Virus record (IMG/VR): IMGVR_UViG_3300042484_001840
Coordinates: 1-64,000 of that record
Reading direction: 5' to 3' (one strand)
Source: a virus
DNA: 64,000 nt
The notes below the pieces were generated by a model that had not been told where the DNA came from, searched no databases, and saw only the letters and a program-made list of their open reading frames with translations. Of the stretch, positions 5,854-55,700 are shown in pieces. How positions within the stretch are numbered: position 1 is the first letter of the stretch; the number at the start of each line of letters is the position of its first letter. The translations under genes and the position numbers were made by a program.

Positions 5854-5865
5854 TGAATTTATCCT

Positions 5866-6765: not shown

Positions 6766-6796
6766 AACGGAGCGGTCAGGAGGGTACCGCTCCGTT
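6766..6796 (-). terminator. stem-loop, probable terminator after the 88-aa gene
   Basis: Perfect 11-bp inverted repeat aacggagcggt/accgctccgtt with a 9-nt loop; weak U-tract on the minus strand. Confidence 0.5.
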
Positions 6797-6817
6797 GCTC
6801 TCCTTGTCGGGAGGACC

Positions 6818-7084: not shown

Positions 7085-7129
7085 TTATATATTTTAGCAG
7101 TCAAATGAGACTAAAGAATTAAACTAAAA

Positions 7130-9937: not shown

Positions 9938-9938
9938 A

Positions 9939-36996: not shown

Positions 36997-38622
36997 ATGG
37001 ACACAGAAAAATCTTTAGTAAAAATAACAACCAAGTATCACTGCATGGTTTCTGGAAAGAAACAAATGGAACCATGCGACGGATGCACCAACCCACAAGG
37101 CTGTCTTTCAAAAGCCATGCAATACAAGGAGAATGAAGAAATGGACGAACTCAACGAAAAGGCTATCGTCAAACTAGATGCAGACGGTGCTGTCGTAAAG
37201 TGCGCCAAGGGTCTTGAGGCTGCTGAATGTGGCTATAAGGCTGGAGCAAAAGTTTGTGGTGCTTGTGGTGCAATGGCATCAATGACCAAGGCTGACATGA
37301 TGCCAGATGCCGAAGAAGACGAAGAAGAAGAAATGTCGGATGACGACACTTCAATGATGCCCGATAAGAAGAAAAAGGGTGGCATGGGTGGCTACGCAAT
37401 GGGCGAAGATGACGAGGAAGAAATGATTCCCGCAAAGAAGAAGGGCGGGATGGGCGAGTATTCCGAAGATGACGAAGAAGAAGTCATGCCCGCAAAGAAG
37501 CGCGGTATGCCGATGGTGGATGCGGAAATGGCTGACGACGAAGAAATGATGCCTACTCCGAAAAAGAAGAAGCCAATGATGATGGTTGAAGACGAAGAGG
37601 AAATGCCTGAAGACGAAGAAATGGGCAAGACTTGGATGATGAAGCCAAGCAAGCGTTCGCGCATGATGGCAATGAAGTCACTTGAAGTTAAGTCTGAAAA
37701 TGACGATGTTTACATGTGTCAGTTGGAACGCAAGTCATACCCGTCAGCAAGTCAGATTTGCGAGAACTGCCCTGGTGGATGCCAGACAGAAGGCGGCATG
37801 CCTGGTTTGTTGGATGTTGAAGGCGTTGGTCTTGGCATTATCGGCGGAAAAGTACTTGACTCTGGTTACTCGTTTGACGACGACCTTTTTGTTGTTCAAC
37901 TTCAGGCAAAAGATGGCAATACATGGGAAATGATTGCCGATGGTCAAAGTGGTGAAATGTTGCGCATGGAGCGCATTAAGACACCAGACTTTGGCATTGA
38001 AGGCAAGTCGGCATTTGATGAAGAAACTGCTTCAGACTTTGGAATCGTTTCAGCATCAGAAGCAGTTGAGATTGCATTGAAGTCGCTTGAAGCAGAATTT
38101 GATGTAGTTGGCGATGTCGTTTCAACTGACTCGGATGTATTCCTCGGTCATGATGTCTACTCAATTGAAGTGGATGCAATGAATGGCAAGTCATACGATG
38201 TCTATGTTTCGCTTGATGGACAGTTTGTTGGTCTTGACGAGTGGACTGCCGATGAAGCAGAAGAAATTGAAGCAGAGGCTGCTGAAATTGCACTGAAGCG
38301 TGCATACGACGAAGAGTCACGCACAGACATGGCTAAGGGCGGTATGGCAATGCCTGACGGCTCATACCCAATCAAGGATGTTGCTGACCTTCGTAATGCA
38401 ATTCAGGCATACGGACGAGCCAAGGACAAGGAAGCAACCAAGGCACACATCATTAAGCGTGCAATGGCTTTGGGTTCGGAAGATTTGATTCCTGAGAATT
38501 GGGTTCCGAAAGATGTTGCTGACAAGTTCTCTAGCGAAAAATCTGAAGACAATCAATTTATGGCATCTTTGATGGAATTTGAACTTCTCGCACAAGAAGA
38601 GAATCTTAAAGACATTCTCTAA
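36997..38622 (+). CDS. acidic multidomain head protein (Cys motifs, Met/Glu/Lys repeats, two PepSY-like domains)
   Basis: CDGC, CGAC and CENC motifs; SASEAVEIAL..GDVV..VYSIEV...GKSYDVYVSLDG (PepSY-like); C-terminal AMPDGSYPI..DLRNAIQAYGR. Confidence 0.7.
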   Translation: MDTEKSLVKITTKYHCMVSGKKQMEPCDGCTNPQGCLSKAMQYKENEEMDELNEKAIVKLDADGAVVKCAKGLEAAECGYKAGAKVCGACGAMASMTKADMMPDAEEDEEEEMSDDDTSMMPDKKKKGGMGGYAMGEDDEEEMIPAKKKGGMGEYSEDDEEEVMPAKKRGMPMVDAEMADDEEMMPTPKKKKPMMMVEDEEEMPEDEEMGKTWMMKPSKRSRMMAMKSLEVKSENDDVYMCQLERKSYPSASQICENCPGGCQTEGGMPGLLDVEGVGLGIIGGKVLDSGYSFDDDLFVVQLQAKDGNTWEMIADGQSGEMLRMERIKTPDFGIEGKSAFDEETASDFGIVSASEAVEIALKSLEAEFDVVGDVVSTDSDVFLGHDVYSIEVDAMNGKSYDVYVSLDGQFVGLDEWTADEAEEIEAEAAEIALKRAYDEESRTDMAKGGMAMPDGSYPIKDVADLRNAIQAYGRAKDKEATKAHIIKRAMALGSEDLIPENWVPKDVADKFSSEKSEDNQFMASLMEFELLAQEENLKDIL

Positions 38623-38652: not shown

Positions 38653-39276
38653 GTGTCGTTTGATTTTTCAAAAGTTAACGGTGTCCAAGTAAAATTAGCA
38701 GTATCTCCTGATGCTATTCCTCAAGAACGCATCACTGGGGATATTCTTAAAGGACGCGGACCCCGACGAGGAAACCTAGAACGCTTACTTCGTTATTGGC
38801 GACCCATTATGCGCAAGCCTGGTGGATTTCGCCGTTGTAAAGTCATTTTGGCAGACCATCCCGAATTATTCCCATTGAATAACATTTGCGCTTGGCTTCA
38901 TCATGAGACTACTGGCTTATGGCCAAACGAGGGATGCCATCACCCTGGTATGAAAAATTGCCGTAAGAAAATTCAAGGTGTCGTTAGAGGTTCAGTTATT
39001 AGCGATAATGAATTTGCTCAGCGTCTTTCACGGCTTCGTGGCGATGGAAAGTCTCTTGACTCCATGGATGGTTACGATTCTGAAGTTGTAACTGAATCAG
39101 ACTTTAATCACGCAAAAACTGTCCTTGATGATTTTATTGAAATGGAAAATAAATTCATTATTTTTATTAATGATGATAATAATTGGCTTCACGAAGGTCA
39201 AGACGAAGATGGAAATTGGTCTCCGCATGATTGGATGAAGCCAGAAGGTCACGAAAAAGACTGCGGATGCGGGTGA
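38653..39276 (+). CDS. head-associated protein with a Cys/His-containing domain
   Basis: GNLERLLRYW..PGGFRRC...CAWLHHETTGLWP; AAGGAG RBS. Confidence 0.65.
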   Translation: MSFDFSKVNGVQVKLAVSPDAIPQERITGDILKGRGPRRGNLERLLRYWRPIMRKPGGFRRCKVILADHPELFPLNNICAWLHHETTGLWPNEGCHHPGMKNCRKKIQGVVRGSVISDNEFAQRLSRLRGDGKSLDSMDGYDSEVVTESDFNHAKTVLDDFIEMENKFIIFINDDNNWLHEGQDEDGNWSPHDWMKPEGHEKDCGCG

Positions 39277-39281
39277 TTTAA

Positions 39282-41219
39282 TTGGAAGATAGTGACCGCA
39301 GGGAAAACCATCCTGACTGGGTTCAGGCACGGGTTAAATCATTTATTCAGGATACAAAAGTCGGCACTGTTCGTTCTGGTTCTGGCGTAGGGCAAGCACT
39401 ACAAGGCGCAGTTTCATATGTAACTCCTGGTGATGTTAGTGGTGTAACTAGCCCTGTTCGCTCTCGTCTTTACTCCGCCATTACTCCTGGTGGTCGTGGC
39501 TTGCGCCCTCGTGTCAATAGACCAAATGAGCGCGGATATCGTTGCCCTGAGGGATATCAGTTTGGTGGTCGCTTTACTGACTCCAAGTGGTCCACATGTG
39601 GACGACAGTTATTTGATATCCCATCACTATCACGAACTTTGCTTCAAATTGCCGATAACGCTATTCGTGTAGGGCGTGGTATTGGTTATCAAAATCCTGA
39701 CACAAACCCTCTTGGTGGTGCCGAAGTTACTGGCGGTTCATTGATTCAGAGCCGTATGGCAAATATTCCTCGTGTTAGTGCTTTTGACAAAAAGAAGCGT
39801 GATGATGGCTTAAAGGCGGCAATTGACGAGTTAGTCAATCCATTGGCTCCAGCGTCAATGATGATTCGGCGCGATGGTTTCCCAATGCAACCAGTCGTTT
39901 CTGCTGGAGAATTACGGAAAGTTCCAGACAATCGCAATATGGAAGGCGCAGTCTTTCTATTGTCTGCATCCAATATTGATTCTTTTGGTGGCGATGAATT
40001 GGGTTTATTGTCAAATACTGGCGTGAGCACTTTGATTTATGTTCTACCTAATGGTTCTACTGTTCGTATGGACAAAACCCGTGCGTTAACCGTAGGCGAA
40101 CGGCGCAAGTTGGGCAAGACTGTCAGTTCGGCATCCAAGATTGACAATAGTAATGATCCATTGGCTCGTCTAAAAATGGTCATTTCAGACTCTGGTGGCG
40201 GAATTTCTATCAACAAAGATTTTTCTAAAATTCGCAATGCTGAAGAAGTTGTTGATTCAGGCAAATTTAAAGGAAAGCCTCGCTGGGTTGCTGAAGCGTT
40301 TCGCAATAGTGGCAAAAAGCGTACTGTTTCTCCCCAGTCAATTGTTGATGATTCCAAGTTGGATTCCGAAACAGAAACTCAAGCAAGTAAAAATATTAAT
40401 GATATTGAAACTGCTATTGAACATATAAACAACGGTGGAAATCTTTCTGATATTAATCCCGCTATTTTGCCTCAGGCTATTCGTCGTGCAAAAGTTTATC
40501 GTCAAAAGAATATTGGATCTGGTCGTATTCTTTTTGAGCGTGCTGACGGCGGTGTTTCTTTTATAGAGGTTTCCAATGGAAAGCGCCTTGAGCATCTTGG
40601 TGCCCATTTTTCTGCCGCTATCGCTGAACATCTTGAATTACCTACTCCTAAAGTCCGCATCATGGGCGAAGGAGACAATCGCCCGTACCTCGTTCAAAAC
40701 ATTGATACTGTCGTGCCAAATGGCAAATTACAATCTATGAAGTTGACAGATATGCCCGCAAAAGACCTTGCTGGTATTTTTGTTTCTGATTACTTGACAG
40801 ATGTTCGCAAACGAAATCCTTCTACTGTTTCGGCTGTTTCTGCTGATGGTAAAGTTCGCGCAATTGCAACGATGAATACCCCCTCGTCGTTGGCTGGTTT
40901 ATCTGCTGAAGAAATGATCAAGCGTCGCTCCATTGTTATTGGCGATTGGGTAAAAGCAGATGGGAATAACATGATTAATGCCATCAAAAACCGCAATGAA
41001 GAAGTTCGTCGTCAAATTCTGGCTGTTTATGAAGATTTAATTCAACGAGCACGCGCTTTTAAATGGGATAGATACATTAAGCAACTACGGTTAGACGGTA
41101 AACTTTCTAGTGCAGAACAAAAGCATATGGATATTGTTAAATCTCTATATGACCAAAGACTAGACAATTTAGCCAAGTCTAAGGAATCTTTTGCTAATAT
41201 TTTGGAGTTAGGCAAATGA
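39282..41219 (+). CDS. RCP-motif protein with a C-terminal HipA/PI3K-like pseudokinase
   Basis: GYRCPEGYQFGGRFTD..CG; FVSDYLTDVRKRNPST sits at the DRHxxN position. Confidence 0.65.
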   Translation: MEDSDRRENHPDWVQARVKSFIQDTKVGTVRSGSGVGQALQGAVSYVTPGDVSGVTSPVRSRLYSAITPGGRGLRPRVNRPNERGYRCPEGYQFGGRFTDSKWSTCGRQLFDIPSLSRTLLQIADNAIRVGRGIGYQNPDTNPLGGAEVTGGSLIQSRMANIPRVSAFDKKKRDDGLKAAIDELVNPLAPASMMIRRDGFPMQPVVSAGELRKVPDNRNMEGAVFLLSASNIDSFGGDELGLLSNTGVSTLIYVLPNGSTVRMDKTRALTVGERRKLGKTVSSASKIDNSNDPLARLKMVISDSGGGISINKDFSKIRNAEEVVDSGKFKGKPRWVAEAFRNSGKKRTVSPQSIVDDSKLDSETETQASKNINDIETAIEHINNGGNLSDINPAILPQAIRRAKVYRQKNIGSGRILFERADGGVSFIEVSNGKRLEHLGAHFSAAIAEHLELPTPKVRIMGEGDNRPYLVQNIDTVVPNGKLQSMKLTDMPAKDLAGIFVSDYLTDVRKRNPSTVSAVSADGKVRAIATMNTPSSLAGLSAEEMIKRRSIVIGDWVKADGNNMINAIKNRNEEVRRQILAVYEDLIQRARAFKWDRYIKQLRLDGKLSSAEQKHMDIVKSLYDQRLDNLAKSKESFANILELGK

Positions 41220-44200
41220 GTAAAATAGTTCTTATTAAAGACGCAATCAAGGATGAGCCATACGCTCTTGTGTCTTACGACTTCATGGAAGTTAAGGCAT
41301 TTGCGTTAACGGACGATGCCGAAGAGTGGTCTGAGTGGGCTAATCAGTCATGTAAAACAATTGACGAGATTCGTGAAAGTCTTACCTATTCACTTCAGAC
41401 AGAACTTCCACGACCAGCAACTGAAATTGAATTAGATGGAATTAAGCAATTCACCACATCTGAGCGTTTTATTCAAATTAAGTCTGCAATTAGTGAATCA
41501 AAACTTGAAATGGTTGGCACATTCAGTCGTCAGAGTCGTCGCTTTGCCGTAAAGACATTGAAAGATTCGGAACTTCCAGAAAGTCCATCTTCATTGCCTT
41601 TGACTTCTTTTAGTGCTCAAAGTCGGCAGGCAATCATTGAGTATAAGGCCTTGTCTTACAGGGCTGACAATAAGTTCTCGGCTACAGCCTTTGAAGCAAA
41701 GGGTGCGCGAGCATTATGGGACCCCTCCCTTGGACCATCTGGCGGATGGCGATGCCCTACTGGTTCTCAGTTCGGTGGATACATCACTGACCGCTTTGGT
41801 CGTGGATGCGGTGGAGGGGTTCTCCGTCGTGTTGGGCGAGCATTAGTTGATGCAGGTCGTGGAATTGACAAATTGGGCGAGGCACGAGGCGCTCGTCGTC
41901 TTGGTCGTGCCGCTGACAAACTCAATAATAAGCCTGGTGGCGGACGCGCTCAGCGTGCCGTTGGTAATGCGGCTAATGCCCTTGAGCGTGGCGCACAGCG
42001 TTTGGTGGGAGACTTTAAGCCTGGTGATGGGCGTGCTCGTCGTCGTGGTATTTCAGCACCAGATATTGCTCCTGAGCGTAAAAAGGAAATTGATGACCGC
42101 TTGATGGCTATTCAGGCAGAACTTGATGATCTGGTTGATCAGCCTCCGACTGGCGATATTGAGAAGCGTATTACAGAACTTACCAATGAAAATAAGAAGT
42201 TGCGTCGCGAGCGAGATGGAGCAATGCCAAAGCGCATTTCTGCCGTTAAGCCTGCTCCATCAAAGCGTCGTGTTGTTAAGCCTGAGGCTGGACGCAACGA
42301 GCGAGTTCAAGGTGCACGCCCTGTAAAGAAGCCAGTTACGCAAGGTCGTCGTCAGGGCGTTCTAGATCGTGCCGCTCAACGACTCGTTGGAGAATATGAC
42401 CCATCAGAGTATAAGCCTGGTGACAAAAAGCGTATCAAAGATCGCGAAAATCGCTACGCAAAAGTTTCTGATGAAGCATTGATTAATGCGCTAAAGATGA
42501 ACTCGCCCAAGGCTGTTAAGCCGGGTCAGAATCGTGACATTGAGGCAAACAAGCGTCAAGAGCGACTTGAAGTTCTTCAGGAAATGCTCAATCGTGGCAT
42601 TGATGTCCCAGAACAATTCAAGAAGGAAGTCAAGCAGTATCGCTTAAAGCCCCAGCGTAAGAAGCGTGGCGCTAAGGCTGGTAGTCGTCGTAGTCGTGCC
42701 GCCAACGCCCTAGAGCGAGCCGCTCAGCGAGTTCTTGCAGGGGACAAGAATAAGAAGCGTCGTGACCGTAGTCGTCGCAAGCGTGCCGCCGATGCTCTTG
42801 AGCGTGGTGCAAAACGGATTCTTGATGGTAAGAAAAAGCCTAAAAAACAAGATAATCGCAAAAAGCCACAACCAAACGGTGGTCTTAACCTACCTGGCGG
42901 TGGTCGTGGGATTATTGAACCGCGAGATACTGAAGGTCTACCAAAACCAGGTATGGGGGGCATGCGAAAGCCTGGTGAAGGTCAACTCAGTCTTGAAGAA
43001 CTTCAAGATTTAATAGATAGTAATGCAGGAATTACTGGTCTTTCTGAATTACGCAAACAGTTTAAAGATTATGACGATGCCCAGATTGACGATTTTTTAA
43101 GTCGTTTTGTTAAAGCACGCGAAAAAATAGATAATGATGATCCAGAAAGATTAAAACTTGACAAGTGGATCATCAATCTTGAAATGGAAAAAACCGCTCG
43201 TGAACTTGATCGCCTAAAGAAGGGCAAGAAAGAACGAGATAATCAGCGTGCCCGTGCTCGTCGTGCCGTTACCGCTCAAAGCGCATTTACCCCCATTCGT
43301 CGTCCACGCCCAAAGAAAATGAAGGGCGACAAGATTGCTTGGGACGATATGGATGCCCAGCAAAAAGCACGCATGCGTAATCGTGCTATTGCCGAACTTG
43401 ATGATCTTGATGCAAGTTGGCGCAAGCGTCTTGGTTTAAAGAGCAATGAACCACTCACTGACAAGATGATTCGTGACTACATTAAAGAACGAGAGAACAA
43501 CAAGCCTGGTGCTTACATTGGCGTTCTTAAGGCTAACGCTAACGACTGGGGCGTTCTTAAGGATTACGCAAATGACCTTGAGAATGGGGATATTCTAAAT
43601 AATCTTGGTCCGAAGCGTCGCAAGACACTTGTTGACGACTTGAATAATGCTTCTGCACCTAAGCGTGTTAAGACACCAAGTTCACCCCGACCCAAGTCTG
43701 CCCCAAGTGCAAAAAAGCGTGATGGTCTAAACGATAATGAAAAGAACCGTCTCAAAGAACTTGACGGACCTGAGTTTGACAACCAAGTAGAAGCATTTGA
43801 CGAAGCAGAGCGTCTGGCTAAAGCAAATAATGAATCTATGGTTGCGTTTGAACAAGATGGAAAATTCCGTGTTGTCAAGGCTCAAGACTTTAACGATCTA
43901 CTAGATGGCATTGATGATGACAGTCGTATGCAAAATGCGATTGGTAGTGTTCGCCATTTTGATGCTAATGGTAACGAAAGCAAAATTGATGTTTCCGAGT
44001 CTGCTCGCGTTAAGCAATCAATTAAAGAATCACTTGGCATTGATGCTCCAGAATCGCTTGGTGGCTCAATACCCGATGATCGGTCACGACGAAATGTGCG
44101 TAATCGGTTCCCGAATAATGGACTCCCCGATAAGGCATTCTGGCGAGACAAGGACTGGAAGCCTCGTACTGGTGGAGATGATGCAGAAAAGCATGAGCGT

Positions 44201-47200
44201 AGGTTTGGTCGCTACTTTGATTCCGATGGCAATATTAATGCTCGTGGTCGCTTTGTTAACGCTCAGTTAGAACAAGAGCGAGCAGAAAAGGCAAAGCCTA
44301 GGTTTAGTAAGACACCAGAATCTGTAATTCCAGAATCTAGTCGTAGAAAAACATCTACTTTTAATTTTGGTAAAGTTGAAGTTTTTGGCGAGGATAATAA
44401 CGGAAGAGTTCTTTGGAAAGACAAAGATGGCTTTGTTATTCCTGACAACATCGTAAATGATGAAGCCGTACGACAACGCTACATGCGTTATGCAAAAGAG
44501 GGGCGAGATGCCTATCTAAATGGAACATTTGCGCAAAATCTTGGCAAAAAGATTGATGATCTTTTAGTCAATAACGACCCCGATAAGCGTCGTGATTTAA
44601 GAACTAATCTCCAAAATCTCATTGAAGATCGTCGTTTTTTAATTGCACGAGATAACCCCGTTGCGGAACGAGGCAAATGGGCTGGGGAATTAGTCGCATT
44701 CCAAAACATGCTTAACGAGTTGGATGCTCATCCAAACGCAGTAGACATTTCCCCAATGAAAAATGAAGGACTTGATTCCTTGCCCAAGGCTTCTATTAAG
44801 CGTCGCGATTTATCCCTTATCAAATTGCCTGAATTTAAAGAAGCAAAAGAAGTATTCGTTCAATATTATGACCTTCGTAATGACAGGTTCAAAGCACATC
44901 TTGAAAACGACAGGCTTGATGATGCAAATATCATGATTGAAGGACTTGCTAACGAAATTGATGGGCATAATAAGATGTTGGCTGACCCTGCAATGCCCGA
45001 AGAAGACAGAATTAAGATTTTAGCGCGCCGTTCAGCCGCTCTTGAAAAAGTAGGTAAGTTTAACCAAGATTTGCAACTTCGTATGGATGAAATCAATAAA
45101 CGAATTGGCGCAGAGAACGCTGCACGATTAGGAATTCCAAGACTAAGCGAAGGCAACATCCCAGATAGTGTTGACGCACGGCGGAGAGCAATCATTGGAA
45201 ACAATTATGAAATAAGGCTTTTGGACAATATCAACCTTGAAAGAGCAAAGGAACGCGCTGCGGAACTTGCAAAAGAAAAAAATGATGGCGAAGGCATCTA
45301 TGTTACACAGGATAAAAAGAGTGGCAAATTCTTCTTACTAACTCGGGCTAATTTTGAAGAAGCAGTTAAAAACGATGCTTTTTCTGAAAATTATGTCGTT
45401 GATGCTGTCGTCTATGCCGCAAAGACCCCAGCGCCACCAAAGCCTCCTAGCGTTGCAAGAATTCCTGATCTAAATGATCCGTTTGATGGATTTAAATTGT
45501 GGAACATGCCAATGAGTTTTGATGCGGACGATAAAGGTAATGCAATCAACGCAGCAAAAAGATATGCTGTTGAATTTGATAGCGATTTTGTAGTAGCACA
45601 ACGCATAAGTGATGGAAAGAAATTTGTTCTTGATGCTCGTGACTGGAATGACTTTGTAAACTCTCCAAAAGTAAATAGTGATGATTTCACTGGCGTGGCA
45701 ATTTTTGGCGGATATGGAAGAGATACCGACGGAATGCCTCGGCTAAACGCTGGCAAAAAACAACTTATTAATGAAATGCAAAGTAGAGATTTAGGTCGCG
45801 TTTTCCCTAAGGGTAATCGCATTTTTGGTAGTGGTGATAAGAAAGCAAAAGAACGCGCTCAAAAGTTTGCCAAAGAACAAGCAGATGCCGATGGTCGGAA
45901 TCGTTATGTTATTGACACTGGCAAAGAATATATGGTTGTCAATGAAAAAGAATATAAAGAACTGCTAGCAGAATTCAATAACAAGGAACAACGCCTAAAT
46001 GCAACGCTATCTCCAGAGAAGTTCATTAGAGAACGAAAAGGGAATAATGGAGTAGGTAGGGGCGCTCTTTCTGGTCCAAGGGAAATGGATATTGATTCCG
46101 ACGAATATAAAGACGCTGTTGTAGCAGTACATCAACAGAAGGGGTCAATTCAAGATATTCCAGACCCACTATTTGCTGCTGTTGTATTTGACGAAAACAT
46201 TACGGACGGTAAGGGCAATTCATTAGAAATGCCAGATGGAAGTGGCGTTGTTCAATTTGAGGACATTTTTTCTGGACGCTTTCAGCCAGATGAAAATTTT
46301 AGATTTGAAAATTTAAGATTTAAGTTTACGCAGAAAAAGCCAAATAATTACAGAGACCCAGACTATGGCGGGGTCTGGGCTGTTTATAAAGTTGAAGACA
46401 AGCAAACTGGCGAAACTTGGTGGATTAAATCTTCGGCATATGGAGTTCATGACGCACTACTTGAAGACATTGGCATGGAAGGTGCTGGTATCTTTAATTT
46501 TGCCGCTGCAAATAACGCAAAGAACATAAGAATTAGTGGTGAAATTCCGCTTGAGCAAAATGGTAGAAAAGTCAGATGGACTGCCATGCGTGATATTGAT
46601 GCATGGGAAGCCCCAGAGGGTCAAGAGCAACTCAGTTGGGTAGATGCCAATAATGGTGGCATTGACGGCAATAATGTCAGTCTAGAAGATATGGCTAATA
46701 TTTTTGTTATGGATTTTGTCTTGGATAATCAAGATAGGCATGGCGGAAACTTCAAAATTGCAACTGATAATAATGGTGTTCAGCGTCTAGGCATTATTGA
46801 TAATGGTTTAATGTTTGGTGGTCGCGGATATGACATTATTGGTATGAGCCGTGATAACCCATTATCAAAAGCAGACATTAATCAAATTGCTGCAGAACGA
46901 GAAGCGTTAGACATGAAGGGATATGCAGAGGGTGATGGAAATATTTTAATAAGAGGATACAGTCTTCCTTCTTCATTCAAGAATCGCCTAGCGTCAAGTC
47001 AATTTGCTAGAGATGAATTCAATCTTCAGGTTAAATACTCAATTGAAACAATGCGAGAAAATATTGACAGAATTCTTGATGAGCAAAGAATTAAAGGAAA
47101 AGGTATTAAACTTTCAGAAACAGAACTAGCACATCTAAAAGCAATGAAATTAGTTGCTGATGCTCGCTTGAAATATCTTGAAGCAAACCCAACTGCTGTG

Positions 47201-47341
47201 ACTGACTATTTGTTGAAAGACCTACAAGTTAATCAGTCTTCTTCAACTCCCAGTCCAATAAATGCCCCAATGTCTCCAATTCGTCGCCCAAGGGGATTAA
47301 CTGGTCGTCAGGTTGGCTCGCCTTTTGCTGGAGGATTGTAA
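41216..47341 (+). CDS. 2041-aa polyvalent protein with RCP motif and C-terminal HipA/PI3K-like kinase
   Basis: WWIKS...LLE...DFVLDNQDRHGGNF...IIDNGLMF. Confidence 0.8.
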   Translation: MSKIVLIKDAIKDEPYALVSYDFMEVKAFALTDDAEEWSEWANQSCKTIDEIRESLTYSLQTELPRPATEIELDGIKQFTTSERFIQIKSAISESKLEMVGTFSRQSRRFAVKTLKDSELPESPSSLPLTSFSAQSRQAIIEYKALSYRADNKFSATAFEAKGARALWDPSLGPSGGWRCPTGSQFGGYITDRFGRGCGGGVLRRVGRALVDAGRGIDKLGEARGARRLGRAADKLNNKPGGGRAQRAVGNAANALERGAQRLVGDFKPGDGRARRRGISAPDIAPERKKEIDDRLMAIQAELDDLVDQPPTGDIEKRITELTNENKKLRRERDGAMPKRISAVKPAPSKRRVVKPEAGRNERVQGARPVKKPVTQGRRQGVLDRAAQRLVGEYDPSEYKPGDKKRIKDRENRYAKVSDEALINALKMNSPKAVKPGQNRDIEANKRQERLEVLQEMLNRGIDVPEQFKKEVKQYRLKPQRKKRGAKAGSRRSRAANALERAAQRVLAGDKNKKRRDRSRRKRAADALERGAKRILDGKKKPKKQDNRKKPQPNGGLNLPGGGRGIIEPRDTEGLPKPGMGGMRKPGEGQLSLEELQDLIDSNAGITGLSELRKQFKDYDDAQIDDFLSRFVKAREKIDNDDPERLKLDKWIINLEMEKTARELDRLKKGKKERDNQRARARRAVTAQSAFTPIRRPRPKKMKGDKIAWDDMDAQQKARMRNRAIAELDDLDASWRKRLGLKSNEPLTDKMIRDYIKERENNKPGAYIGVLKANANDWGVLKDYANDLENGDILNNLGPKRRKTLVDDLNNASAPKRVKTPSSPRPKSAPSAKKRDGLNDNEKNRLKELDGPEFDNQVEAFDEAERLAKANNESMVAFEQDGKFRVVKAQDFNDLLDGIDDDSRMQNAIGSVRHFDANGNESKIDVSESARVKQSIKESLGIDAPESLGGSIPDDRSRRNVRNRFPNNGLPDKAFWRDKDWKPRTGGDDAEKHERRFGRYFDSDGNINARGRFVNAQLEQERAEKAKPRFSKTPESVIPESSRRKTSTFNFGKVEVFGEDNNGRVLWKDKDGFVIPDNIVNDEAVRQRYMRYAKEGRDAYLNGTFAQNLGKKIDDLLVNNDPDKRRDLRTNLQNLIEDRRFLIARDNPVAERGKWAGELVAFQNMLNELDAHPNAVDISPMKNEGLDSLPKASIKRRDLSLIKLPEFKEAKEVFVQYYDLRNDRFKAHLENDRLDDANIMIEGLANEIDGHNKMLADPAMPEEDRIKILARRSAALEKVGKFNQDLQLRMDEINKRIGAENAARLGIPRLSEGNIPDSVDARRRAIIGNNYEIRLLDNINLERAKERAAELAKEKNDGEGIYVTQDKKSGKFFLLTRANFEEAVKNDAFSENYVVDAVVYAAKTPAPPKPPSVARIPDLNDPFDGFKLWNMPMSFDADDKGNAINAAKRYAVEFDSDFVVAQRISDGKKFVLDARDWNDFVNSPKVNSDDFTGVAIFGGYGRDTDGMPRLNAGKKQLINEMQSRDLGRVFPKGNRIFGSGDKKAKERAQKFAKEQADADGRNRYVIDTGKEYMVVNEKEYKELLAEFNNKEQRLNATLSPEKFIRERKGNNGVGRGALSGPREMDIDSDEYKDAVVAVHQQKGSIQDIPDPLFAAVVFDENITDGKGNSLEMPDGSGVVQFEDIFSGRFQPDENFRFENLRFKFTQKKPNNYRDPDYGGVWAVYKVEDKQTGETWWIKSSAYGVHDALLEDIGMEGAGIFNFAAANNAKNIRISGEIPLEQNGRKVRWTAMRDIDAWEAPEGQEQLSWVDANNGGIDGNNVSLEDMANIFVMDFVLDNQDRHGGNFKIATDNNGVQRLGIIDNGLMFGGRGYDIIGMSRDNPLSKADINQIAAEREALDMKGYAEGDGNILIRGYSLPSSFKNRLASSQFARDEFNLQVKYSIETMRENIDRILDEQRIKGKGIKLSETELAHLKAMKLVADARLKYLEANPTAVTDYLLKDLQVNQSSSTPSPINAPMSPIRRPRGLTGRQVGSPFAGGL

Positions 47342-47342
47342 A

Positions 47343-47690
47343 ATGGAACAAGATATTGAAAGAACAGAAAAATCTTTAAAGGATTTAAAGAAAGAAATCA
47401 CATATCCTGCTGTTATTTATGTTGAGACAGAACAGGGAAATATTGCTCCAATTTTAGTTCTTGAACGAAAAGGTAGAATTACTTCTTATTTTTGGGGCGA
47501 TGTTAAACGCTATGATTCAAATGAGTATAATGTTGTTGGTGATACTGTAAGACTATCTATAGGTTCGCAGTCGTCAGCAAAACTATTTTTTATTGATAAT
47601 GCCACTCCTGTGGACATTGACAGACTTATAGATCAGGCTAAGAAAAATAAGATAGTCAAACCAGAACCTAAAGGCAAAACATCAAAATGA
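47343..47690 (+). CDS. small protein, putative partner/immunity of the upstream kinase
   Basis: ATG 2 nt after the upstream stop, with a GGAGG RBS; 115 aa. Confidence 0.65.
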   Translation: MEQDIERTEKSLKDLKKEITYPAVIYVETEQGNIAPILVLERKGRITSYFWGDVKRYDSNEYNVVGDTVRLSIGSQSSAKLFFIDNATPVDIDRLIDQAKKNKIVKPEPKGKTSK

Positions 47691-50600
47691 CTACCGATTG
47701 CGAAACTTGTCGTCCGCTTGTAAAAGTCATGAACCCCCAAATGTCTACGGACCGTAGGCGGTTTATGATTGAGAGCAAGGCTGCCGAATATCGCAAACAC
47801 ATGGGTCAGCCAAGCGGTTTATTGCAAAAGGGTGCTCGGGCAATATTTGACCCTAAACTTGGTCCGTCTGGTGGATATCGCTGTCCTGAGGGGAGTCAGT
47901 TTGGTGGTTACATTACCGACCGCTTTGGCAGAGGCTGTGGTGGGGGTATTATTCGCCGTGTCGGGCGAGCCTTTGGAAAACTAGGTCGTGGATTAGATAA
48001 CATTGCAGACAGGCGTGACCGTAGTCGTTTGGGTCGTGCCGTCAATCGCCGTAGTAAGCCTAATCGCGTTGCTCGTGCCGCTGGTGCGCTAGAGCGTGGA
48101 GCACAAAGACTTGTTGGCGAATACAAGCCCGGTGACTACAAACCAGGTGACGGTGGTCGTCGTAATAGGCGCAACCTACCTGGTGGACCCTCTTTGCGTC
48201 GTTCTGCTGTTCCACGCAAACCTAAGCGTGAACGCAAACTGCCCAAAGACGGGGACAAGAAGCCTCGCACCCAAGGGGCAACTCCCAAAAAGCGCCCCAT
48301 TATTGAGCGCGCTGCTGAAGGGCTAGAACGCGCTGCTCAGCGTGTTTTGGATGAAGATCGCAAGAAAAGAACACAAGGCGCTAAGCCTGCCAAGCCGAAG
48401 AAGCCTGTTGCTCCCAAGGTTCCTTCACTGAAGCCAAATGTTTCAGAAGATAAAAAACGAAACATCACCGACATTAATGATATTGACTGGGATAATTTAA
48501 CTCCCGAACAGCGTGACGAAATTCAAGGGATTCGTTGGGATGCCATTAGTGACCTTGAAGACAAAATGTCTAAGTATATTGGCGTTCCAAAAGAGCGCAT
48601 GGACCCTGTTCTATTTTTAGACAGAAATGAACGAAACAGAAATAATAAAAAATACCAAGCAGATGTGCTTAAGTGGAGACAATTACACAACAACTTTCAA
48701 GATATGCCAGCAGAAGCAATTAAAGAAATTGACTGGACCGATGGAGAACGCAAGAAGATTCTTGATGTTGTTAATGGGGATGTAAAGCCCGATCTTGCAA
48801 AAGACGGTGGAGAATTTGACTGGGATAATTTAACTCCAGAACAGCGTGGCAAAATCAAGGACATTGCAAACAATGCGCTAGAAGACGACAAAAAAGCACT
48901 TCTGAAACATTTTGGTGCTGCGAGTTGGAATAATGACAGAGTTAATCGTGCTATAGATTTAGCAGACAAAGGATTCATAAAGAAGGATAAAGCCAACGAA
49001 ATAGAAAAAATTGCATTGAGATGGAATCTGTTGCAAACCCAGTGGAATGACGAACCTAATCTTGCTATTAACGACATTAATTGGACAGACGACCAGCGTC
49101 AACAAATCCGTGATGCAATTGGCATAGAGGCTCCTAAGAAGCCCAAGACCCGTGGTGCTGACTTCTGGGAACGACGCAAGAATAACAAGCCGATCAAGCC
49201 TGAAGAATTAGATGTTGAGGATGCTCCAGAGATTTTCTCAAGCAAGCCAGACGGCACATCTGAAAGTAATCGTCTTGTCAAGGCTTGGGAACAAGCATAT
49301 GGAGACGAAATAGATAAATACTTTGCTGAGAAAAATGTAGATCGCCTTGAAAAATTAAAAAATTCAATAGATTTTATTCTCAATAAAAAAGAAATGAATC
49401 TATCTCCTGCTATGCGTCGGATGCTTCAAGAAAAAATTAATGACATAGACAAGAAGGTTGCTGCTCTCCGTGTGCGAAAAGCACGAGGTGCACGCACTGC
49501 CACACCAAAGCCAAAACTTCCCAGTCTTGTAGGTAAGCCAGTAAGCCGTCAATCAAAAATTACTCGTATTAAAGATAATGTCATTGATGCTTTGCGCATT
49601 AAAAACAGGCGTGAGAATGCTATGGGCGACTTTGCTCCAGACGCAATTGGTGATGGCGTACTTGCTTTCCCTGAAAACATTGTTAACGATGACATTAAAA
49701 ATGTGGCAGATGCAGTCAAGTGGCTTGATGACGGAAAATCATTATACGAAATTCCACAACATTATTGGCTAGAGGCAGTGACTGAGCATGTAGATAATGC
49801 AAGAAATCCACAATACAATAAAATTCCAATTAATAACCCTGGTGTTATTAAAAAGATTTTCATGTTTGAAAAATTAGACAAAGATGGAAAAGGCACTGGA
49901 ACTGGTGTCGTTTTTGCTCGTGCTCCAGGTAATGCAAGAGACGGCATGGGCGAGGTTATGGGTCAACAAGTCCTTAATGCTCTTGGTATGAATGTTGCTC
50001 CTGCGCGATTTGACGGAATTGTAAGAGACCCCGGCGGTGAAACTCCTGTTGCCGTAATGCCATTTGCTTGGAATAGGGCAGCACAAGGAGACATGCAACG
50101 ACCAGTAGCGATGAATTTTGACCGAAAGTTGTTTGATCAATTTGAAGATAAAGGATTCCCTGTACGACTAGGAAATTTATTAGGCAACTATTTCATGGGT
50201 GTTGGGGATAGGCACACAAATAACGCAATGATGGCAATTGTTGATGGTCAGCCTCATATTGTTCCTATTGACTTGGGCTGGAATGGTAACAGAAAAGATT
50301 TTTACCTTTATGCAAAGGGTGGATTTCAAGGTTTCTCAATGGACCCTGACTTATATGACAATATTGCAAATCACTTAGCCACACTTGATCCCGCAGAAGC
50401 AAAAAAACAACGCGATAAACTTGTTGAAGTTTTTGATGGAATGGTCTTGCGTGGTGATGCAATTGTTGCCCAAGGTAAAGATAAATTCATTAAAGATGCT
50501 GTAGCAATGATGCATCTTGGTGCTGATCCAGTTAAGAACGAGTCTTTTGTAGTAGAAATTGACAGAAAAGAACTTGAATCTACGATGGAGAAAAAAGCAT

Positions 50601-51937
50601 CGGATATATTTGATGCTTTAGAAGCAAATGTTGCGCAGGCGAAAAATGAAAGAGCGCGTTTATTTGATGCATGGGGAATGGAAGATGTTCCTTCATTGGG
50701 AGTACTTGAAGTAGTCCGCCCCACTAAGCCAAAGACACCAAAGGTATCTACACCCAAGGTATCCACACCTAAGGCACCTACCTCAAATGCATCCAAACCA
50801 AAAAGTGCTCTAGAAAGAATTATTGCACCACTTCGTATCAGTAATCCACAGAAAAGAAACCCACGAGTACCAATCTTGGCGGAAGTAAAATCTGGTGAAT
50901 TAATTGCTCGTCCAAAAATGATAGAAAATCCAAAAATTAAAAACCGCCAAAATGCCAAAGACTGGCTTGACAATGGTGGGCTAATTGAGGAAGTTCCGCA
51001 AAGATTTTGGGCACAAGCACTTTCTGACCATGTAAATGGTAACGCGGCAGTGAAACAGTATAAAGAAATTGACCCATCTGATGAAGTAGGTCAAGGTGCA
51101 GTTAAGACTACAAGAATTTACTTGGCACTTGATGAAAATGGTAAACCAACTGCCCAAGGGTTCCTCATTCAACGCGAAGGTGGAGTAGATAAACTCGGTG
51201 GGGCATTAGACAGAAATAATGTGGCAGAGTTGGTTGTAGCAAACATGCTCAATGCCTTTGGACTTAACTACGAACCAGCAAGACTAGATGGTCAACTTGA
51301 CGAAGATGGAAAAGAAGATTTAAATAAAGTTCCTGCTGTTGTTATTCCATTTGCATGGAATGGCGGACCAAACTATGTGAATGTTCAAAAGCCAAGTGGG
51401 TGGAATGCCGCCAACTTTGACAGGGATATTTTTGATGGTCTTGCTGATAAGGCATACCCACAGCGACTAGCAGCCTTTTTGGGAAATCTTGCTTTTGCCA
51501 TTCCTGATAGGCATGACCAAAATCAAATGGGTCAAATTATTGATGGTGTTCCTATGGTCGTTCCAATTGACTTTGGTTGGGCAGGCAAATACGGTCCAAT
51601 GGATTTCTATGATTATTTAGATGGCGAATTTGAAGAACTTGAACCTGACTTTTTTATGGACATGCAAAATCATTTGAATGGTTTAGACAAACAAACAAAA
51701 ATTGAACAAACACAAGCAATCAAACAAGTTTGGGACAATATTGAATCAAAACTAGAAGAAACATTTAATCGCGGGAAAGATCAATTTATTAACGATTTCC
51801 TTGATTTCTTAACACCAGAACAACGAGCAAACACAAGAGTGGTTGATCAGGCAACATATAAACTTAAGCAAATGTATGAACTTTTAGAAACACAATACAA
51901 TGAAATTCAAATTAATCGTCCTGAATTTCTTAAGTAA
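47687..51937 (+). CDS. 1416-aa polyvalent protein with RCP motif and two tandem HipA/PI3K-like kinase domains
   Basis: GDRHTNN..VPIDLGW (~50207) and PDRHDQN..VPIDFGW (~51506). Confidence 0.8.
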   Translation: MTTDCETCRPLVKVMNPQMSTDRRRFMIESKAAEYRKHMGQPSGLLQKGARAIFDPKLGPSGGYRCPEGSQFGGYITDRFGRGCGGGIIRRVGRAFGKLGRGLDNIADRRDRSRLGRAVNRRSKPNRVARAAGALERGAQRLVGEYKPGDYKPGDGGRRNRRNLPGGPSLRRSAVPRKPKRERKLPKDGDKKPRTQGATPKKRPIIERAAEGLERAAQRVLDEDRKKRTQGAKPAKPKKPVAPKVPSLKPNVSEDKKRNITDINDIDWDNLTPEQRDEIQGIRWDAISDLEDKMSKYIGVPKERMDPVLFLDRNERNRNNKKYQADVLKWRQLHNNFQDMPAEAIKEIDWTDGERKKILDVVNGDVKPDLAKDGGEFDWDNLTPEQRGKIKDIANNALEDDKKALLKHFGAASWNNDRVNRAIDLADKGFIKKDKANEIEKIALRWNLLQTQWNDEPNLAINDINWTDDQRQQIRDAIGIEAPKKPKTRGADFWERRKNNKPIKPEELDVEDAPEIFSSKPDGTSESNRLVKAWEQAYGDEIDKYFAEKNVDRLEKLKNSIDFILNKKEMNLSPAMRRMLQEKINDIDKKVAALRVRKARGARTATPKPKLPSLVGKPVSRQSKITRIKDNVIDALRIKNRRENAMGDFAPDAIGDGVLAFPENIVNDDIKNVADAVKWLDDGKSLYEIPQHYWLEAVTEHVDNARNPQYNKIPINNPGVIKKIFMFEKLDKDGKGTGTGVVFARAPGNARDGMGEVMGQQVLNALGMNVAPARFDGIVRDPGGETPVAVMPFAWNRAAQGDMQRPVAMNFDRKLFDQFEDKGFPVRLGNLLGNYFMGVGDRHTNNAMMAIVDGQPHIVPIDLGWNGNRKDFYLYAKGGFQGFSMDPDLYDNIANHLATLDPAEAKKQRDKLVEVFDGMVLRGDAIVAQGKDKFIKDAVAMMHLGADPVKNESFVVEIDRKELESTMEKKASDIFDALEANVAQAKNERARLFDAWGMEDVPSLGVLEVVRPTKPKTPKVSTPKVSTPKAPTSNASKPKSALERIIAPLRISNPQKRNPRVPILAEVKSGELIARPKMIENPKIKNRQNAKDWLDNGGLIEEVPQRFWAQALSDHVNGNAAVKQYKEIDPSDEVGQGAVKTTRIYLALDENGKPTAQGFLIQREGGVDKLGGALDRNNVAELVVANMLNAFGLNYEPARLDGQLDEDGKEDLNKVPAVVIPFAWNGGPNYVNVQKPSGWNAANFDRDIFDGLADKAYPQRLAAFLGNLAFAIPDRHDQNQMGQIIDGVPMVVPIDFGWAGKYGPMDFYDYLDGEFEELEPDFFMDMQNHLNGLDKQTKIEQTQAIKQVWDNIESKLEETFNRGKDQFINDFLDFLTPEQRANTRVVDQATYKLKQMYELLETQYNEIQINRPEFLK

Positions 51938-51954
51938 GGTAACAAGGAACTGAC

Positions 51955-52380
51955 ATGGCTCAATATTTAATAGTTTACTCAGCAATTAATCCTGACTATA
52001 AACGAGGCGCTCCGTCTGGTTCTATTAAGTTTGACGGAGTTTCTGCAACAATTGTTGGACCTGATAGATTTGTAAAAGATTGGTCAAAGAAATTATCTAT
52101 TTCCTCGGTCTTGGCTTCAAGCATTAATGACAACAAAGTGGATATTTCAAGTTTTGTTTCAACAAACACCTATGTTGACATGATCTTTTTTGATGACGAT
52201 AGCGCATCTAAGAGTGATGATGGAAAATTAAAAAAGTTATACGATTCCATTTCTGGAAGTAAAAGAAAAATCACCCTTGAACGACTTCCAACTTTTGATG
52301 ATCCAGACTTTACAATTGAAAAACGAAATGCTTTTTTCAAAAAGGCACGCAAAATCAAAGAACAAAGTAGAAAAAAATAA
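51955..52380 (+). CDS. putative kinase partner/immunity protein 1
   Basis: 141 aa with an AAGGA RBS; paralog of the next gene. Confidence 0.7.
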   Translation: MAQYLIVYSAINPDYKRGAPSGSIKFDGVSATIVGPDRFVKDWSKKLSISSVLASSINDNKVDISSFVSTNTYVDMIFFDDDSASKSDDGKLKKLYDSISGSKRKITLERLPTFDDPDFTIEKRNAFFKKARKIKEQSRKK

Positions 52381-52709
52381 TGGCTGAATATCTTATTTAT
52401 CATGGCGATTTTGGCTCCAGTATTGACGACCCCGGTCTGATGTCAATTAAGGCTGATGGGGTCAAATTAACTATTCGGACCTCTCGTGACATGATGGAAG
52501 AGTGGAAAGATCGCATTGAAAATTCTATGGTTTTGCAGGGTTCAATAAAAGATGGACAAGTAGACCTTGAAAGATATATTTTTGCTAATAAGTATTCCAC
52601 ATGGACATTCTTTACTCAAGAAGAATTTGATGACTATAAAAAAGTGTACAATTCTGTAAAGGGTTCATCAGTAGTTGTGACTATTAAGCCAGAGAAAAAG
52701 AGCAACTAA
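52380..52709 (+). CDS. putative kinase partner/immunity protein 2
   Basis: 109 aa. MAxYLI, SIKxDGV, W, VL..SI.D..VD and N.Y...FF are shared with the previous gene. Confidence 0.7.
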   Translation: MAEYLIYHGDFGSSIDDPGLMSIKADGVKLTIRTSRDMMEEWKDRIENSMVLQGSIKDGQVDLERYIFANKYSTWTFFTQEEFDDYKKVYNSVKGSSVVVTIKPEKKSN

Positions 52710-52710
52710 A

Positions 52711-55700
52711 ATGGCAAAGATGCGCGCGTCATCCAAAGAAGATGCAATGAAGATTGCACGCTATGTTGGCTGTTCTGGCGCACACCAAGATAAGAAGGGG
52801 AATTGGATACCTTGTGCCAATCCCGAAGATCTGGTGGAGATCCTAGATAAATCTGCAAGAAACTCTACTGAAAAGTTAACCAAGAAAAAGCGTCGTCGGT
52901 TTGTTAATGGTCAATGGGAAAGACTCGGAGAACGAGGTCCTATCAGTATTGACACAATTGACGGCGGTGGACTTGTGTCTGGTATGGGCAAGTCATTAAC
53001 TGAATGGTTCAAAGAGGAATGGGTTGATATTTCAAGACCCAAAAAGGGTGGCGGGTTTGAGGCGTGCGGACGAGATGACGCAGACAAGGGCAAATACCCT
53101 AAATGCGTACCAGCGTCACGAGCAAGCAATATGTCAGAGGAAGAAATTCGTTCTGCGGTTTCACGAAAAAGAAGAGCAGAATCTACACAAAGTAGAGATG
53201 GCAAAAAACCGATTTATGTTCCTACTGATAAAAAGAACGACCCATTTGTTTTGAACGAAAAATCAGCAATACCCACAAATCCAGAACTTTATGCACGGGT
53301 TAAGGCTGAAGCAAAAAAGAAGTTTGATGTTTATCCTTCTGCTTACGCAAACGCTTGGTTAGTAAGGGAATACAAAAAACGGGGTGGCGGATATCGTTCT
53401 GAAAAAGCAGACGATGGCGATTATGAAGACTTTGTTGAAGACCTCACAGAAATGCAACTATCCGATTTTATTGATTGGGTAGATCAAAAAGAAAAAGCAG
53501 AAAAGGTCTGCCCGCCAGCAACATCAGATATTGGCTTAAATATCAAGAATCGTCAGAATGCTATCAACACGGCTGGTTATGGTCCCCTAAACCCTAAAGA
53601 ACCCAATGTGGACTTTTGGGAAAAGAAGGCAAAACGCTGGTCTGTAACGATTGAAGAATCCAAGAAACAAAAGTGCGGAAACTGTGCTGTCTTTATTAAG
53701 ACTCCTCGGATTCTTGAATGCATTGAGTCGGGTCTTGGTAATGAGGCTGGAGACACTGCTTGGGATGCAATCAATGCTGGTGACCTTGGATACTGCGAGG
53801 CATTTGACTTCAAGTGTGCTTCTGCCCGTACCTGTGATGCATGGGTCGGTGGAGGTCCAGTAACTGTTGAAAAGGGTAAGCAAGAGGAAAAGGCTGATAC
53901 TTCCACGATTATTATTGGTCGTGCTAAGCCTCGCATTGGTGACCCCGATGTCTACACCGACCCCAACTCTGCTCGTCTGCGTTCTCGTAAACTTGGTTGC
54001 ATTGGTATCGCTCGTAGAGAAACGCCAGATGGAGAAGTTGTCTGGACACCCTGCACAAATATCTCAGATCAACGCAGATACCAAGGCGAAACACCCTTAG
54101 GTCAGCGAGATGAGGCTCGGCGTTTTGCTGACAGACTTGCTGAAGTTGGCGGTCCTGATCGTAAGCGCCGACGCATGCGTAAGTACAAGAGCCTTGAATA
54201 CACGACAGATATAAAGGCTTTTCGGACTTTGGGTTCAAGTATGGGCGGTCGCGGGATCAGTGGTAGTTGTCGTGAATTTACTGGAGTTGATGGCGATGGT
54301 GATGGATTCGTATGTAATCCCGCCTCTCGCGAGGACGACCTACCCCTTGCGGACACCCGAAAAATTTTTAAGCGTGGCGGTAAAATGCTGTCAAGACAAG
54401 AATTGGTAGAGCAAGATGAAACAATTCTTAATATGTTTGGCAAAGGTGAATCTTTATCAAAAATCGGTAAAGAAGTAGATCTTGACCCAAAAGAAGTTGA
54501 TTTTTTAATCAATGGTTTCCGCAAAAATAATCCAAAATCTGCATTCACATTATTCAATAATCGCAATATCAATATTCAAAAAAAGCGTGAAGAGCGCAGG
54601 AAATTAGTACTTGAGAATGTTAGAAAAGCCACAGATGCCAACCGCAAGTTAAATGCAAGAGGCGAAGACCCTACGCCAGAATCTGATGATGATCTTGATT
54701 TTACCCTTGATCCAGATAAGGTTCCTCAATATCTTAAAAAGAATTTTGCTAAATATATGCAACGCTTAAAAGACCCTGAATTTGCTGATGAAATAAAAAA
54801 AATTGCTGATGATTTGCGTGCTGGTCTTGGTTTGGCTGGAACGGCAAAAAAATACAAACGAGACTCAGCATTTATAGAAATTGTTCGTAGAAATGAAAAA
54901 ATTACAAAAACAAAAAAACTACAAAAAAACATTAGAGAATCAGAAGTTCCTGATTTTAATAATGATACTGATGACCCCGATTTTACTCTTGACCCAGAAA
55001 AAATTCCTCAATTTTTAAAAAGGGGTTTTGCTGGTAATGTTAGGCTAGCAAGAAGTCCTGAGTTTGCGGAAGAAAGAAAGAAAATTGCTGATGACTTGCT
55101 CCTTGGTCTTGGAATTAATGCCGTAAGATTAAAATATAATCGCGATACTTCATTGGTAGATGTAGTTCGCAGGCTTGAAAAAATTCCAAAATCAAAAGAA
55201 CTCAAAAAAGTTGATCCTAAAATTAGACAGGATGTTGTTGACCTTGTAGATAAATTGATTAAAGATGATAATCCATTCATGTCGGTTGCCGAAATCGCAA
55301 AAGAATTTAAAATTACTGGAATGGATGCGCGTCGGATTATTAATGCTGCAAAATTGGAAAAATATTTTGATTTGCACAATAAATATACAGACGCAAAAAG
55401 AAAAAAACTTTTTGCTGAAGTTGCTGAACTTCATAAACTTGATCTTACATATGAAGAAATAGGCAAACGCTTAGGAATTAGTGGTGATGCAGTAAATCAT
55501 ATTGTAAAAAAAATGAAACTACCCCTAAGACGACCTGGCGGGGGAGGTGGTCTTCCTGGAGTAATAAAAAGAGGTGGCGTAATGATTCCTCGTTCATTGG
55601 CAATGAAACAAAACAAGGAAATGCTTGACTTGTATCAGCGTGGCTATTCTCTTACAGATATTGCTAAAGAAATGGGAATCGGTGTTGCTACCGTTAGGGA

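Follow-up and report, generated by a model that had tools for sequence, protein, structure and literature searches.

A candidate effector system of atypical kinases and small partner proteins in the head operon of an uncultured actinobacterial myovirus

Why would a phage keep three very large genes, each ending in a kinase-like module, between its prohead protease and its capsid protein? The question is raised by IMG/VR virus record IMGVR_UViG_3300042484_001840, which is 145,042 bp long with a CheckV completeness of 98%; the window, that is, the whole stretch of DNA analysed here, is its first 64 kb. A sequence-only reading had described three large co-oriented genes between the prohead protease and capsid genes of the window, and these are g645, g2041 and g1416, which encode 645, 2041 and 1416 amino acids (aa) and all lie on the plus strand. 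With about even confidence, we read them and their small neighbors as a polymorphic head-operon effector system of atypical kinases and immunity-like partners in an uncultured actinobacterial myovirus, a reading in which inhibition, packaging, injection and substrate are what we infer. The genes at its center are as follows, with the basis of each assignment in parentheses.

39282..41219, plus strand: g645, 645 aa, core head-operon protein with C-terminal module K1 (family alignment, hhalign)
41216..47341, plus strand: g2041, 2041 aa, giant protein with a C-terminal K2-type kinase (AlphaFold2 [AF2] fold, conserved residues, hidden Markov model [HMM] coverage, charge)
47343..47690, plus strand: partner A, 115 aa from ATG 47343 (ribosome-binding site, start codon, family, predicted complex)
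47687..51937, plus strand: g1416, 1416 aa, giant protein with two tandem K3-type modules (K3/K4 homology, family alignment)
51955..52380, plus strand: partner B, additional divergent copy, 141 aa (paralogous to the gene that follows; partner-B HMM E 6e-44)
52380..52709, plus strand: partner B, conserved copy, 109 aa (41% identity to the partner in related locus L049)

The start and stop codons of the kinase and partner genes are tightly coupled. The first small gene most likely begins at ATG 47343, which stands behind GGAGG and two bases past the g2041 stop codon, and not at TTG 47313. Small genes had been proposed to follow the kinase genes; one does follow g2041, and two that are paralogous to each other (E 5e-10) follow g1416, but none follows g645.

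Are the modules in these three proteins related to one another? We named them K1 (in g645, ~40380-41216), K2 (in g2041, ~46046-47230), and K3 and K4 (both in g1416, ~49652-50716 and ~50912-51934). K3 and K4 are 36% identical (E 2e-56). Profile-profile comparison with hhalign matched the g645 family to the K3 family at E 3.5e-10 (268 columns, probability 96.7%) and to the K2 family at E 3e-8 over the C-terminal lobe (C-lobe), and it aligned the K2 and K3 families colinearly at E 7e-4. These comparisons confirm the earlier proposal of four homologous modules. All four peptides that had been quoted for a shared helical pre-domain were found in the sequence, and this pre-domain falls within the inter-family alignment and within the folded K2 module.

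Is the shared module a kinase? K2 was folded by AF2 with 16 homologues, and K1, K3 and K4 are tied to its fold by hhalign alone. The K2 model has a predicted local distance difference test (pLDDT) score of 84.3 and a predicted template modelling score (pTM) of 0.85, and it has the fold of a kinase: in Foldseek, every match at E up to 1e-3 was a kinase. By VIA-align, the best match was CotH (5jda; Z 15.1, root-mean-square deviation 4.0, 277 residues aligned), followed by CtkA (Z 13.2 over 223 residues), PI4KIIIb (Z 12.7), HipA (Z 12.6), PI4KIIa (Z 11.5), MavQ (Z 11.4) and HipT (Z 10.9), with Fam20C-type secretory-pathway kinases also among the matches. The HipA/CtkA/PI3-4K-like fold suggested by the sequence-only reading thus holds for K2 in AF2, Foldseek and VIA-align, since HipA, HipT, CtkA and PI4K were all matched (Z 10.9-13.2). 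Sequence identity to the best structural matches, CotH and CtkA, is 8-15%.

Sequence comparison gives a fainter signal. The K3 profile aligned with PI4KIIIb chains at E 0.003 over ~65 residues of the catalytic loop, and its language-model neighbors include LepB_N, PI3_PI4_kinase, HipA_2 and Fam20C clusters, which we treat as leads only. Searches of PDB chains with the K2 and K3 module sequences, and with the K2-family profile, returned nothing meaningful, and PHROGs returned one weak family of unknown function and nothing more. The Pfam family PF00454 (PI3_PI4_kinase) scored 20.0 bits in g2041 and 22.5 bits in g1416, in both cases over the catalytic loop only and below its gathering cut-off of 27.1. 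No other Pfam family was found at E up to 0.1 in the proteins with kinase modules, whether HipA (HipA_C, Couple_hipA, HipA_2), CotH or MuF. The K modules are a new family within the fold group, outside every curated family.

The rank of CotH raises the question of whether the kinases serve the phage's own assembly. They could be CotH-like enzymes that phosphorylate phage head proteins during morphogenesis instead of host targets, for instance an acidic 541-aa protein of the same operon or the basic regions of the giants. Besides the CotH and Fam20C matches, this view draws on the position of the genes, which lie within the head operon beside that conserved acidic protein and encode very basic segments. 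The rank of a fold among CotH, CtkA, PI4K and HipA does not indicate a substrate, however, and the relatives described below bear on this view as well.

Would the modules be active? The catalytic motifs read DRHGGN..IIDNG in g2041 and DRHTNN..IDLG and DRHDQN..IDFG in g1416. The signature DRHxxN..D(x)G, which had been ascribed to all four modules, is therefore present in K2, K3 and K4 but not in K1, which reads DVRKRN without the Mg-binding Asp. The catalytic residues of g2041 are K1738, D1840-R-H..N1845 and D1862. Across the K2 family (16 sequences), K128, E140, D230, R231, H232, N235 and D252 (module numbering) are invariant, and the DxG motif invariably reads D-N-G. The K3 family has 102 representatives in a library of 1.8 billion proteins, mostly at the C-terminal end of proteins of 700-3000 aa, and its D-R..N..D residues are invariant across very divergent members. 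K3 and K4 retain DRHxxN along with both the Asp and the Glu. In both of them, as in their relatives P0039 and P0045, the beta3 column holds no Lys and a conserved Arg stands at +1; placed one residue past the Lys column, this Arg may be a variant way of holding adenosine triphosphate (ATP). The K3 and K4 beta3 strands are encoded at window positions 49900-49925 and 51180-51205. Among nine members of the g645 family, some keep D-R-N-P-S-N and one keeps A-D-N, with none keeping both. Since the DRH and Mg-binding Asp motifs are lost, K1 is a pseudokinase.

These motifs invite another interpretation, in which the modules are degenerate or non-catalytic structural domains, or else lipid or small-molecule kinases of the PI4K/LepB/MavQ type, and the small genes are unrelated fillers. 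K1 is clearly dead, K3 and K4 have no canonical Lys, the fold matches with the best scores include the lipid kinases PI4K and MavQ, and LepB_N clusters are language-model neighbors. Phosphoinositides occur in Actinobacteria, so a lipid-kinase reading keeps some weight. The invariance of the full catalytic set in the K2 family and of D-R..N..D in the K3 family nevertheless argues for catalysis, and fillers would not be expected to adjoin one kinase type consistently or to give the predicted interface described below. We regard this interpretation as improbable.

What do the three proteins carry besides their modules? g645 has the motif RCPEGxQFGGRFTD..C, which we call the handle, at residue 87 in its conserved N-terminal half, and its homologues (31-38% identity) occur in 13+ viral loci. 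Judged from its sequence, g645 belongs to the conserved core of the head operon, and its kinase domain is catalytically dead. K1 had been counted among the variable effectors, and it has to be withdrawn from them given that the g645 family is a conserved core protein and its module a pseudokinase. In g2041 the handle is at residue 179 and is followed by a strongly basic region (+56 over residues 100-700). The last ~600 aa of g2041 align with the whole of a stand-alone K2-type kinase protein, so that g2041 amounts to a complete kinase cassette to which an extension of 1400 residues has been joined. The unit A..A....V.....GKF.V......F..L recurs ~4 times in g2041 (residues ~850-1600, window ~43760-46000) and appears once in a 679-aa stand-alone kinase (residues ~190-230). 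In g1416 the handle is at residue 65, and the N-terminal region of the protein is basic.

Is this arrangement fixed in related phages? In a comparison set of ~30 related viral loci, the portal-MuF, protease, 541-, 207-, 645-aa and capsid genes are conserved (the S78 protease is 62% identical in L016). The giants have their first ~200 residues in common and differ in their bodies and C-termini. In some phages, the N-terminal half of g645 runs straight into a giant with an active-looking K3 kinase at its end. Locus L022 has the same conserved head genes and no kinase, and L019, L020, L023 and L031 have other C-terminal domains. The expectation that related phages would show a variable cargo is met by these giants, which share only ~200 N-terminal residues and in which the family of the downstream small gene shifts with the effector type. 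The same loci weigh on the CotH-like assembly view: because relatives with the same head genes either have no kinase at all or bear different C-terminal domains, the kinase is not needed for assembly. With a paralogous kinase also encoded in the replication region, we give the assembly view little credence.

The handle is the most constant part of these proteins. In the form G[WYF]RCPxGxx[FY]GGxITDRFGRxCG, it is near-invariant in roughly half of the long proteins that make up the K3 family in the 1.8-billion-protein library. A second N-terminal handle, DPDAIDADGDGIVQEGTxWERP (in full MxxxLRxEPYDPDAIDADGDGIVQEGTAWERP), occurs in stand-alone K2-type proteins and in many K3-type proteins. It was seen in P0061, P0069, P0073, P0081, P0084, P0087, P0093, P0094, P0101, P0111, P0112 and P0115, and in P0081 a single chain holds a K3-type kinase together with a full K2-type one. 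Among prokaryotes (one genome per species, 185,579 species), no encoded relative of the handle motif was found, and the search thus gave neither a prophage nor a clue to the host. Among 50,697 records of cultured phages, neither a megablast search with the head region nor tblastn searches with K2 and K4 gave a match.

What are the small genes? The partner A family comprises 18 clusters, all of 105-116 aa, with no Pfam hit. Partner A is predicted to be a small alpha/beta protein (pLDDT 84 when modelled alone), and its residues S75 and S77 are invariant. Its model has no convincing structural relative among solved chains (best scores: VIA Z 4.9, Foldseek E 0.05), which does not by itself make it a new fold. 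HipS-like, HipB-like and STAS-like identities were considered for partner A and are unsupported, there being no convincing structural match. For partner B, the language-model atlas gave no usable hit. We also dropped the notion of a single partner family, as partners A and B show no detectable homology (hhalign E 0.3).

Each partner family nevertheless keeps to one kinase type. Partner A lies directly downstream of every K2-type kinase that was examined, twice in this genome and again in unrelated metagenome contigs. Partner B genes follow K3-type kinases in L011, L040, L035, L039 and L049, and the small genes downstream of kinase-free giants are of other kinds. The type of partner therefore tracks the type of kinase. 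A rule of one partner per kinase had been proposed, and by count it holds in this genome but not in its relative L049, where two K3 modules in one protein share a single partner B (41% identical to the 109-aa copy of the window genome). The gene lists around P0022-P0024 resemble L049 in partner count, and we rejected the rule in its strict form. The broader proposal of cognate small partners has fared better, with partner type following kinase type across divergent phages and with a predicted complex of K2 and partner A.

Do a kinase and its partner bind each other? The cognate pair of K2 module and partner A, the sole pair modelled, was run with three controls. The interaction prediction score from aligned errors (ipSAE) was 0.83 for the pair and 0.00 for the best of the controls. 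For comparison, the same mark was attained by 58 of the 80 solved complexes and by 2 of the 110 mismatched pairs, a yardstick that is rough here since the alignments were self-made. Contact agreement among the runs was at least 70%, and the pLDDT of the partner was at least 74. On the kinase side, the predicted interface comprises K128, strands beta1-beta3, D230, H232-N235 and D252; on the side of partner A it comprises loop 69-81 with the invariant S75 and S77. The predicted complex supports binding without proving it, and it fits a plug of the nucleotide site and the catalytic cleft.

The invariant serines suggest a different role for the partners, as substrates, adaptors or regulatory subunits. 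The kinase would phosphorylate the invariant Ser loop of its partner, or the partner would select targets, and the pair would act in the infected cell without necessarily being packaged. S75 and S77 stand in a loop that is predicted to enter the catalytic cleft, and a single partner B for two kinase modules in L049 is easily accommodated. On the other hand, the contacts predicted for the complex extend to the ATP-binding Lys128 and to the N-lobe strands beta1-beta3, which points to occlusion of the nucleotide site, unlike peptide docking on the C-lobe. The co-variation of partner family and effector type also resembles that of toxin-immunity pairs. A further kinase, found outside the window, bears on the same choice:

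106905-109276 of the whole record (G000), minus strand: fifth K2-type kinase with its partner A, locus L004

This kinase (107237-109276, minus strand, 679 aa) is 43% identical to the K2 of g2041. Its partner A (110 aa) lies downstream, with overlapping stop and start codons. The neighbors of the pair are genes for replication and regulation, with primase-helicase and WhiB close by, and the K2-type kinase and partner A can therefore occur independently of the head operon. In the replication region, it is hard to see what co-expression of a pure inhibitor would achieve. Even with this point in its favor, we consider it unlikely that the partners are substrates, adaptors or regulatory subunits, while giving this view more weight than either of the two above.

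Based on these observations, we favor the effector reading and propose the following course of events. The system would be expressed late, as part of a head-morphogenesis operon. In these giants, the conserved handle near the N-terminus (RCPxGxQFGGxITDRFGRxCG) is followed by a strongly basic region and, at the C-terminus, by an atypical kinase-like domain. In the producing cell, partner A would lie across the ATP and catalytic cleft and hold the kinase inactive, as an immunity-like inhibitor. The handle would then direct the giants into the procapsid, leaving the partners out. The giants would exit with the DNA, and the freed kinases would phosphorylate host proteins early in the next infection. 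We infer packaging and injection from the head-operon position, the shared handle, the basic regions and the analogy with MuF toxins, polyvalent proteins and encapsidated effectors.

Several observations weigh against this reading. The complex score is the model's own confidence, obtained from self-made alignments. Partner A, whose cleft-occupying loop has invariant serines, could be a docked substrate rather than an inhibitor. The replication-region pair works outside the head operon, where a co-expressed permanent inhibitor is hard to explain. With the canonical beta3 Lys missing, activity of K3 and K4 is plausible but less certain than that of K2. The two modules that share one partner in L049 count here too, and all relatives are uncultured.

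If the effector reading is true, phages of some very abundant freshwater bacteria supply their hosts with ready-made kinases together with the DNA, and phosphorylation joins the known injected activities (ADP-ribosylation, RNA polymerase, anti-restriction). A bolder version would make these proteins an unrecognized class of virion-delivered kinase effectors in phages of freshwater Actinobacteria: the RCPxGxQFGG handle would load interchangeable kinases, inhibitors of a new fold would plug their active sites until packaging separates the two, and the host, rich in Ser/Thr phosphorylation, would be rewired within seconds. We offer this version tentatively and would sooner doubt it than adopt it. 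Three things are defined by the analysis, none of them with a cultured or solved representative: a kinase family of ~100 clusters at 50% identity, two small partner families, one of them without a detectable structural relative, and an N-terminal motif of 25 residues whose conservation far exceeds that of its carrier proteins and which is a candidate cargo-loading tag. As simple units that can be separated, the kinase-partner pairs lend themselves to structural studies and to tests of toxicity and rescue.

In what setting do these genes lie? The remaining genes of the head operon are the following.

32933..35203, plus strand: portal protein, 756 aa, with a C-terminal MuF domain, at the start of the head operon (Pfam Phage_portal E 2.5e-49; Phage_Mu_F E 7.5e-7, residues 667-752)
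35297..36982, plus strand: S78 prohead serine protease, 561 aa, with a ~400-aa C-terminal extension (Pfam Peptidase_S78 E 2.8e-11, residues 24-167)
36997..38622, plus strand: conserved, Met-rich and very acidic 541-aa protein (PepSY sub-threshold; kept in L016, L021 and L022)
38653..39276, plus strand: 207-aa core protein, always just before the 645-aa family gene (52-67% identity in L016, L019, L020, L022 and L023)
52711..55959, plus strand: g1082, 1082 aa, with DUF3721 (twice), DUF5872 and at least 4 helix-turn-helix or sigma-70 region 4-like domains (Pfam)
56122..57420, plus strand: HK97-type major capsid protein, at the end of the interval (Pfam Phage_capsid E 1.6e-47)

Besides the three genes with kinase modules, the interval between protease and capsid thus holds the 541-, 207- and 1082-aa genes. 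The 541-aa protein has a net charge of -62 and could be scaffold-like, or a counter-ion for the basic giants; its ends are Cys-rich, and acidic, Met-rich units of the form EEEM..P.KKKGGMG are repeated in it. In relatives, DUF3721 proteins of 850-1500 aa with varying C-terminal parts hold the position of g1082 upstream of the capsid gene, and g1082 may be further head cargo, a packaged transcription factor. The capsid protein is ~50% identical to the capsids of actinobacterial myoviruses (Cantarevirus and Bendigovirus), which likewise have large unannotated genes between portal and capsid.

The genome has three WhiB genes (G000 69597-69782, 101851-102054 and 114118-114318), and the host is therefore almost certainly an actinobacterium. 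Based on the G+C content of ~43%, it is probably from a low-GC aquatic lineage. For freshwater Actinobacteria, phage isolates exist from 'Ca. Nanopelagicales' (PMC10202952). The phage appears lytic. Window positions 1-11341 and G000 133702-145042 form an 11.3-kb direct repeat at the record ends (99.63% identity), which reflects either a long terminal repeat or two strain variants joined by an assembly wrap-around; the unique genome is ~133.7 kb once it is discounted. IMG/VR labels the record as linear with no end repeats.

How do these proteins compare with known systems? A literature search found no description of this kinase family. T4 Alt and the internal proteins, P1 Dar, the N4 virion RNA polymerase and the ejection proteins of giant phages such as SPN3US are similar in being large or enzymatic, packaged, and ejected with the DNA to act at once on the host. 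Those encapsidated effectors are experimentally supported, and no kinase with its own cognate partner is among them, whereas packaging of the giants is suggested by gene position and the handle. HipS neutralizes HipT by binding near its active site. The HipA/HipB and HipT/HipS systems share the fold group (HipA Z 12.6, HipT Z 10.9), and here, too, a ~100-aa protein encoded next to the kinase is proposed to act as a neutralizer near the active site. They differ from the present system in several respects: the K modules have no HipA Pfam hit at E 0.1, their partner is encoded downstream rather than upstream, the partner model has no detectable match among solved chains (best Z 4.9), and the kinases come from a phage and form part of giant proteins of the head operon. 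CotH of the spore coat and CtkA of Helicobacter pylori, the best structural matches, are likewise protein kinases of the atypical kind, and their catalytic loops follow the same logic. In contrast to the K modules, however, they belong to another biological context and have no known dedicated small partner; identity is 8-15%, and there is no Pfam CotH hit.

A closer organizational parallel is offered by the MuF polymorphic toxins of temperate phages, as described in the part of the report by Jamet et al. (2017, PMC5576092) that we draw on. These toxins also lie in the phage head module, combine a conserved N-terminal part with variable C-terminal effectors, have a small cognate gene directly downstream and are presumed to be delivered by the virion. 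The analogy with MuF-region toxins that had been drawn for this locus stands for the variable C-terminal effector and the downstream cognate gene, but not for the MuF domain, which is fused to the portal protein alone (residues 667-752) and to none of the kinase proteins. The handle of the kinase proteins is a different, previously undescribed one, the RCPxGxQFGG motif. Further differences are that this phage appears lytic, is uncultured and has a handle that was not found in bacterial genomes, and that its effector is a kinase, which is not noted among the MuF toxin domains in that part of the report.

The polyvalent proteins of phages and conjugative elements (Iyer et al. 2017, PMC5512222) resemble the giants in being very large and multidomain, in lying near virion genes and in being predicted to be injected with the DNA. 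Some of them carry kinase domains thought to modify host proteins, like the T7 kinase (PMC5512222). That kinase domain is a Ser/Thr/Tyr-kinase derivative without the C-terminal subdomain, from phages of Verrucomicrobia and Bacteroidetes (PMC5512222). In contrast, the kinase described here is a full two-lobed DRHxxN domain of the CotH/CtkA/PI4K/HipA type, carried by an actinophage and accompanied by dedicated partners.

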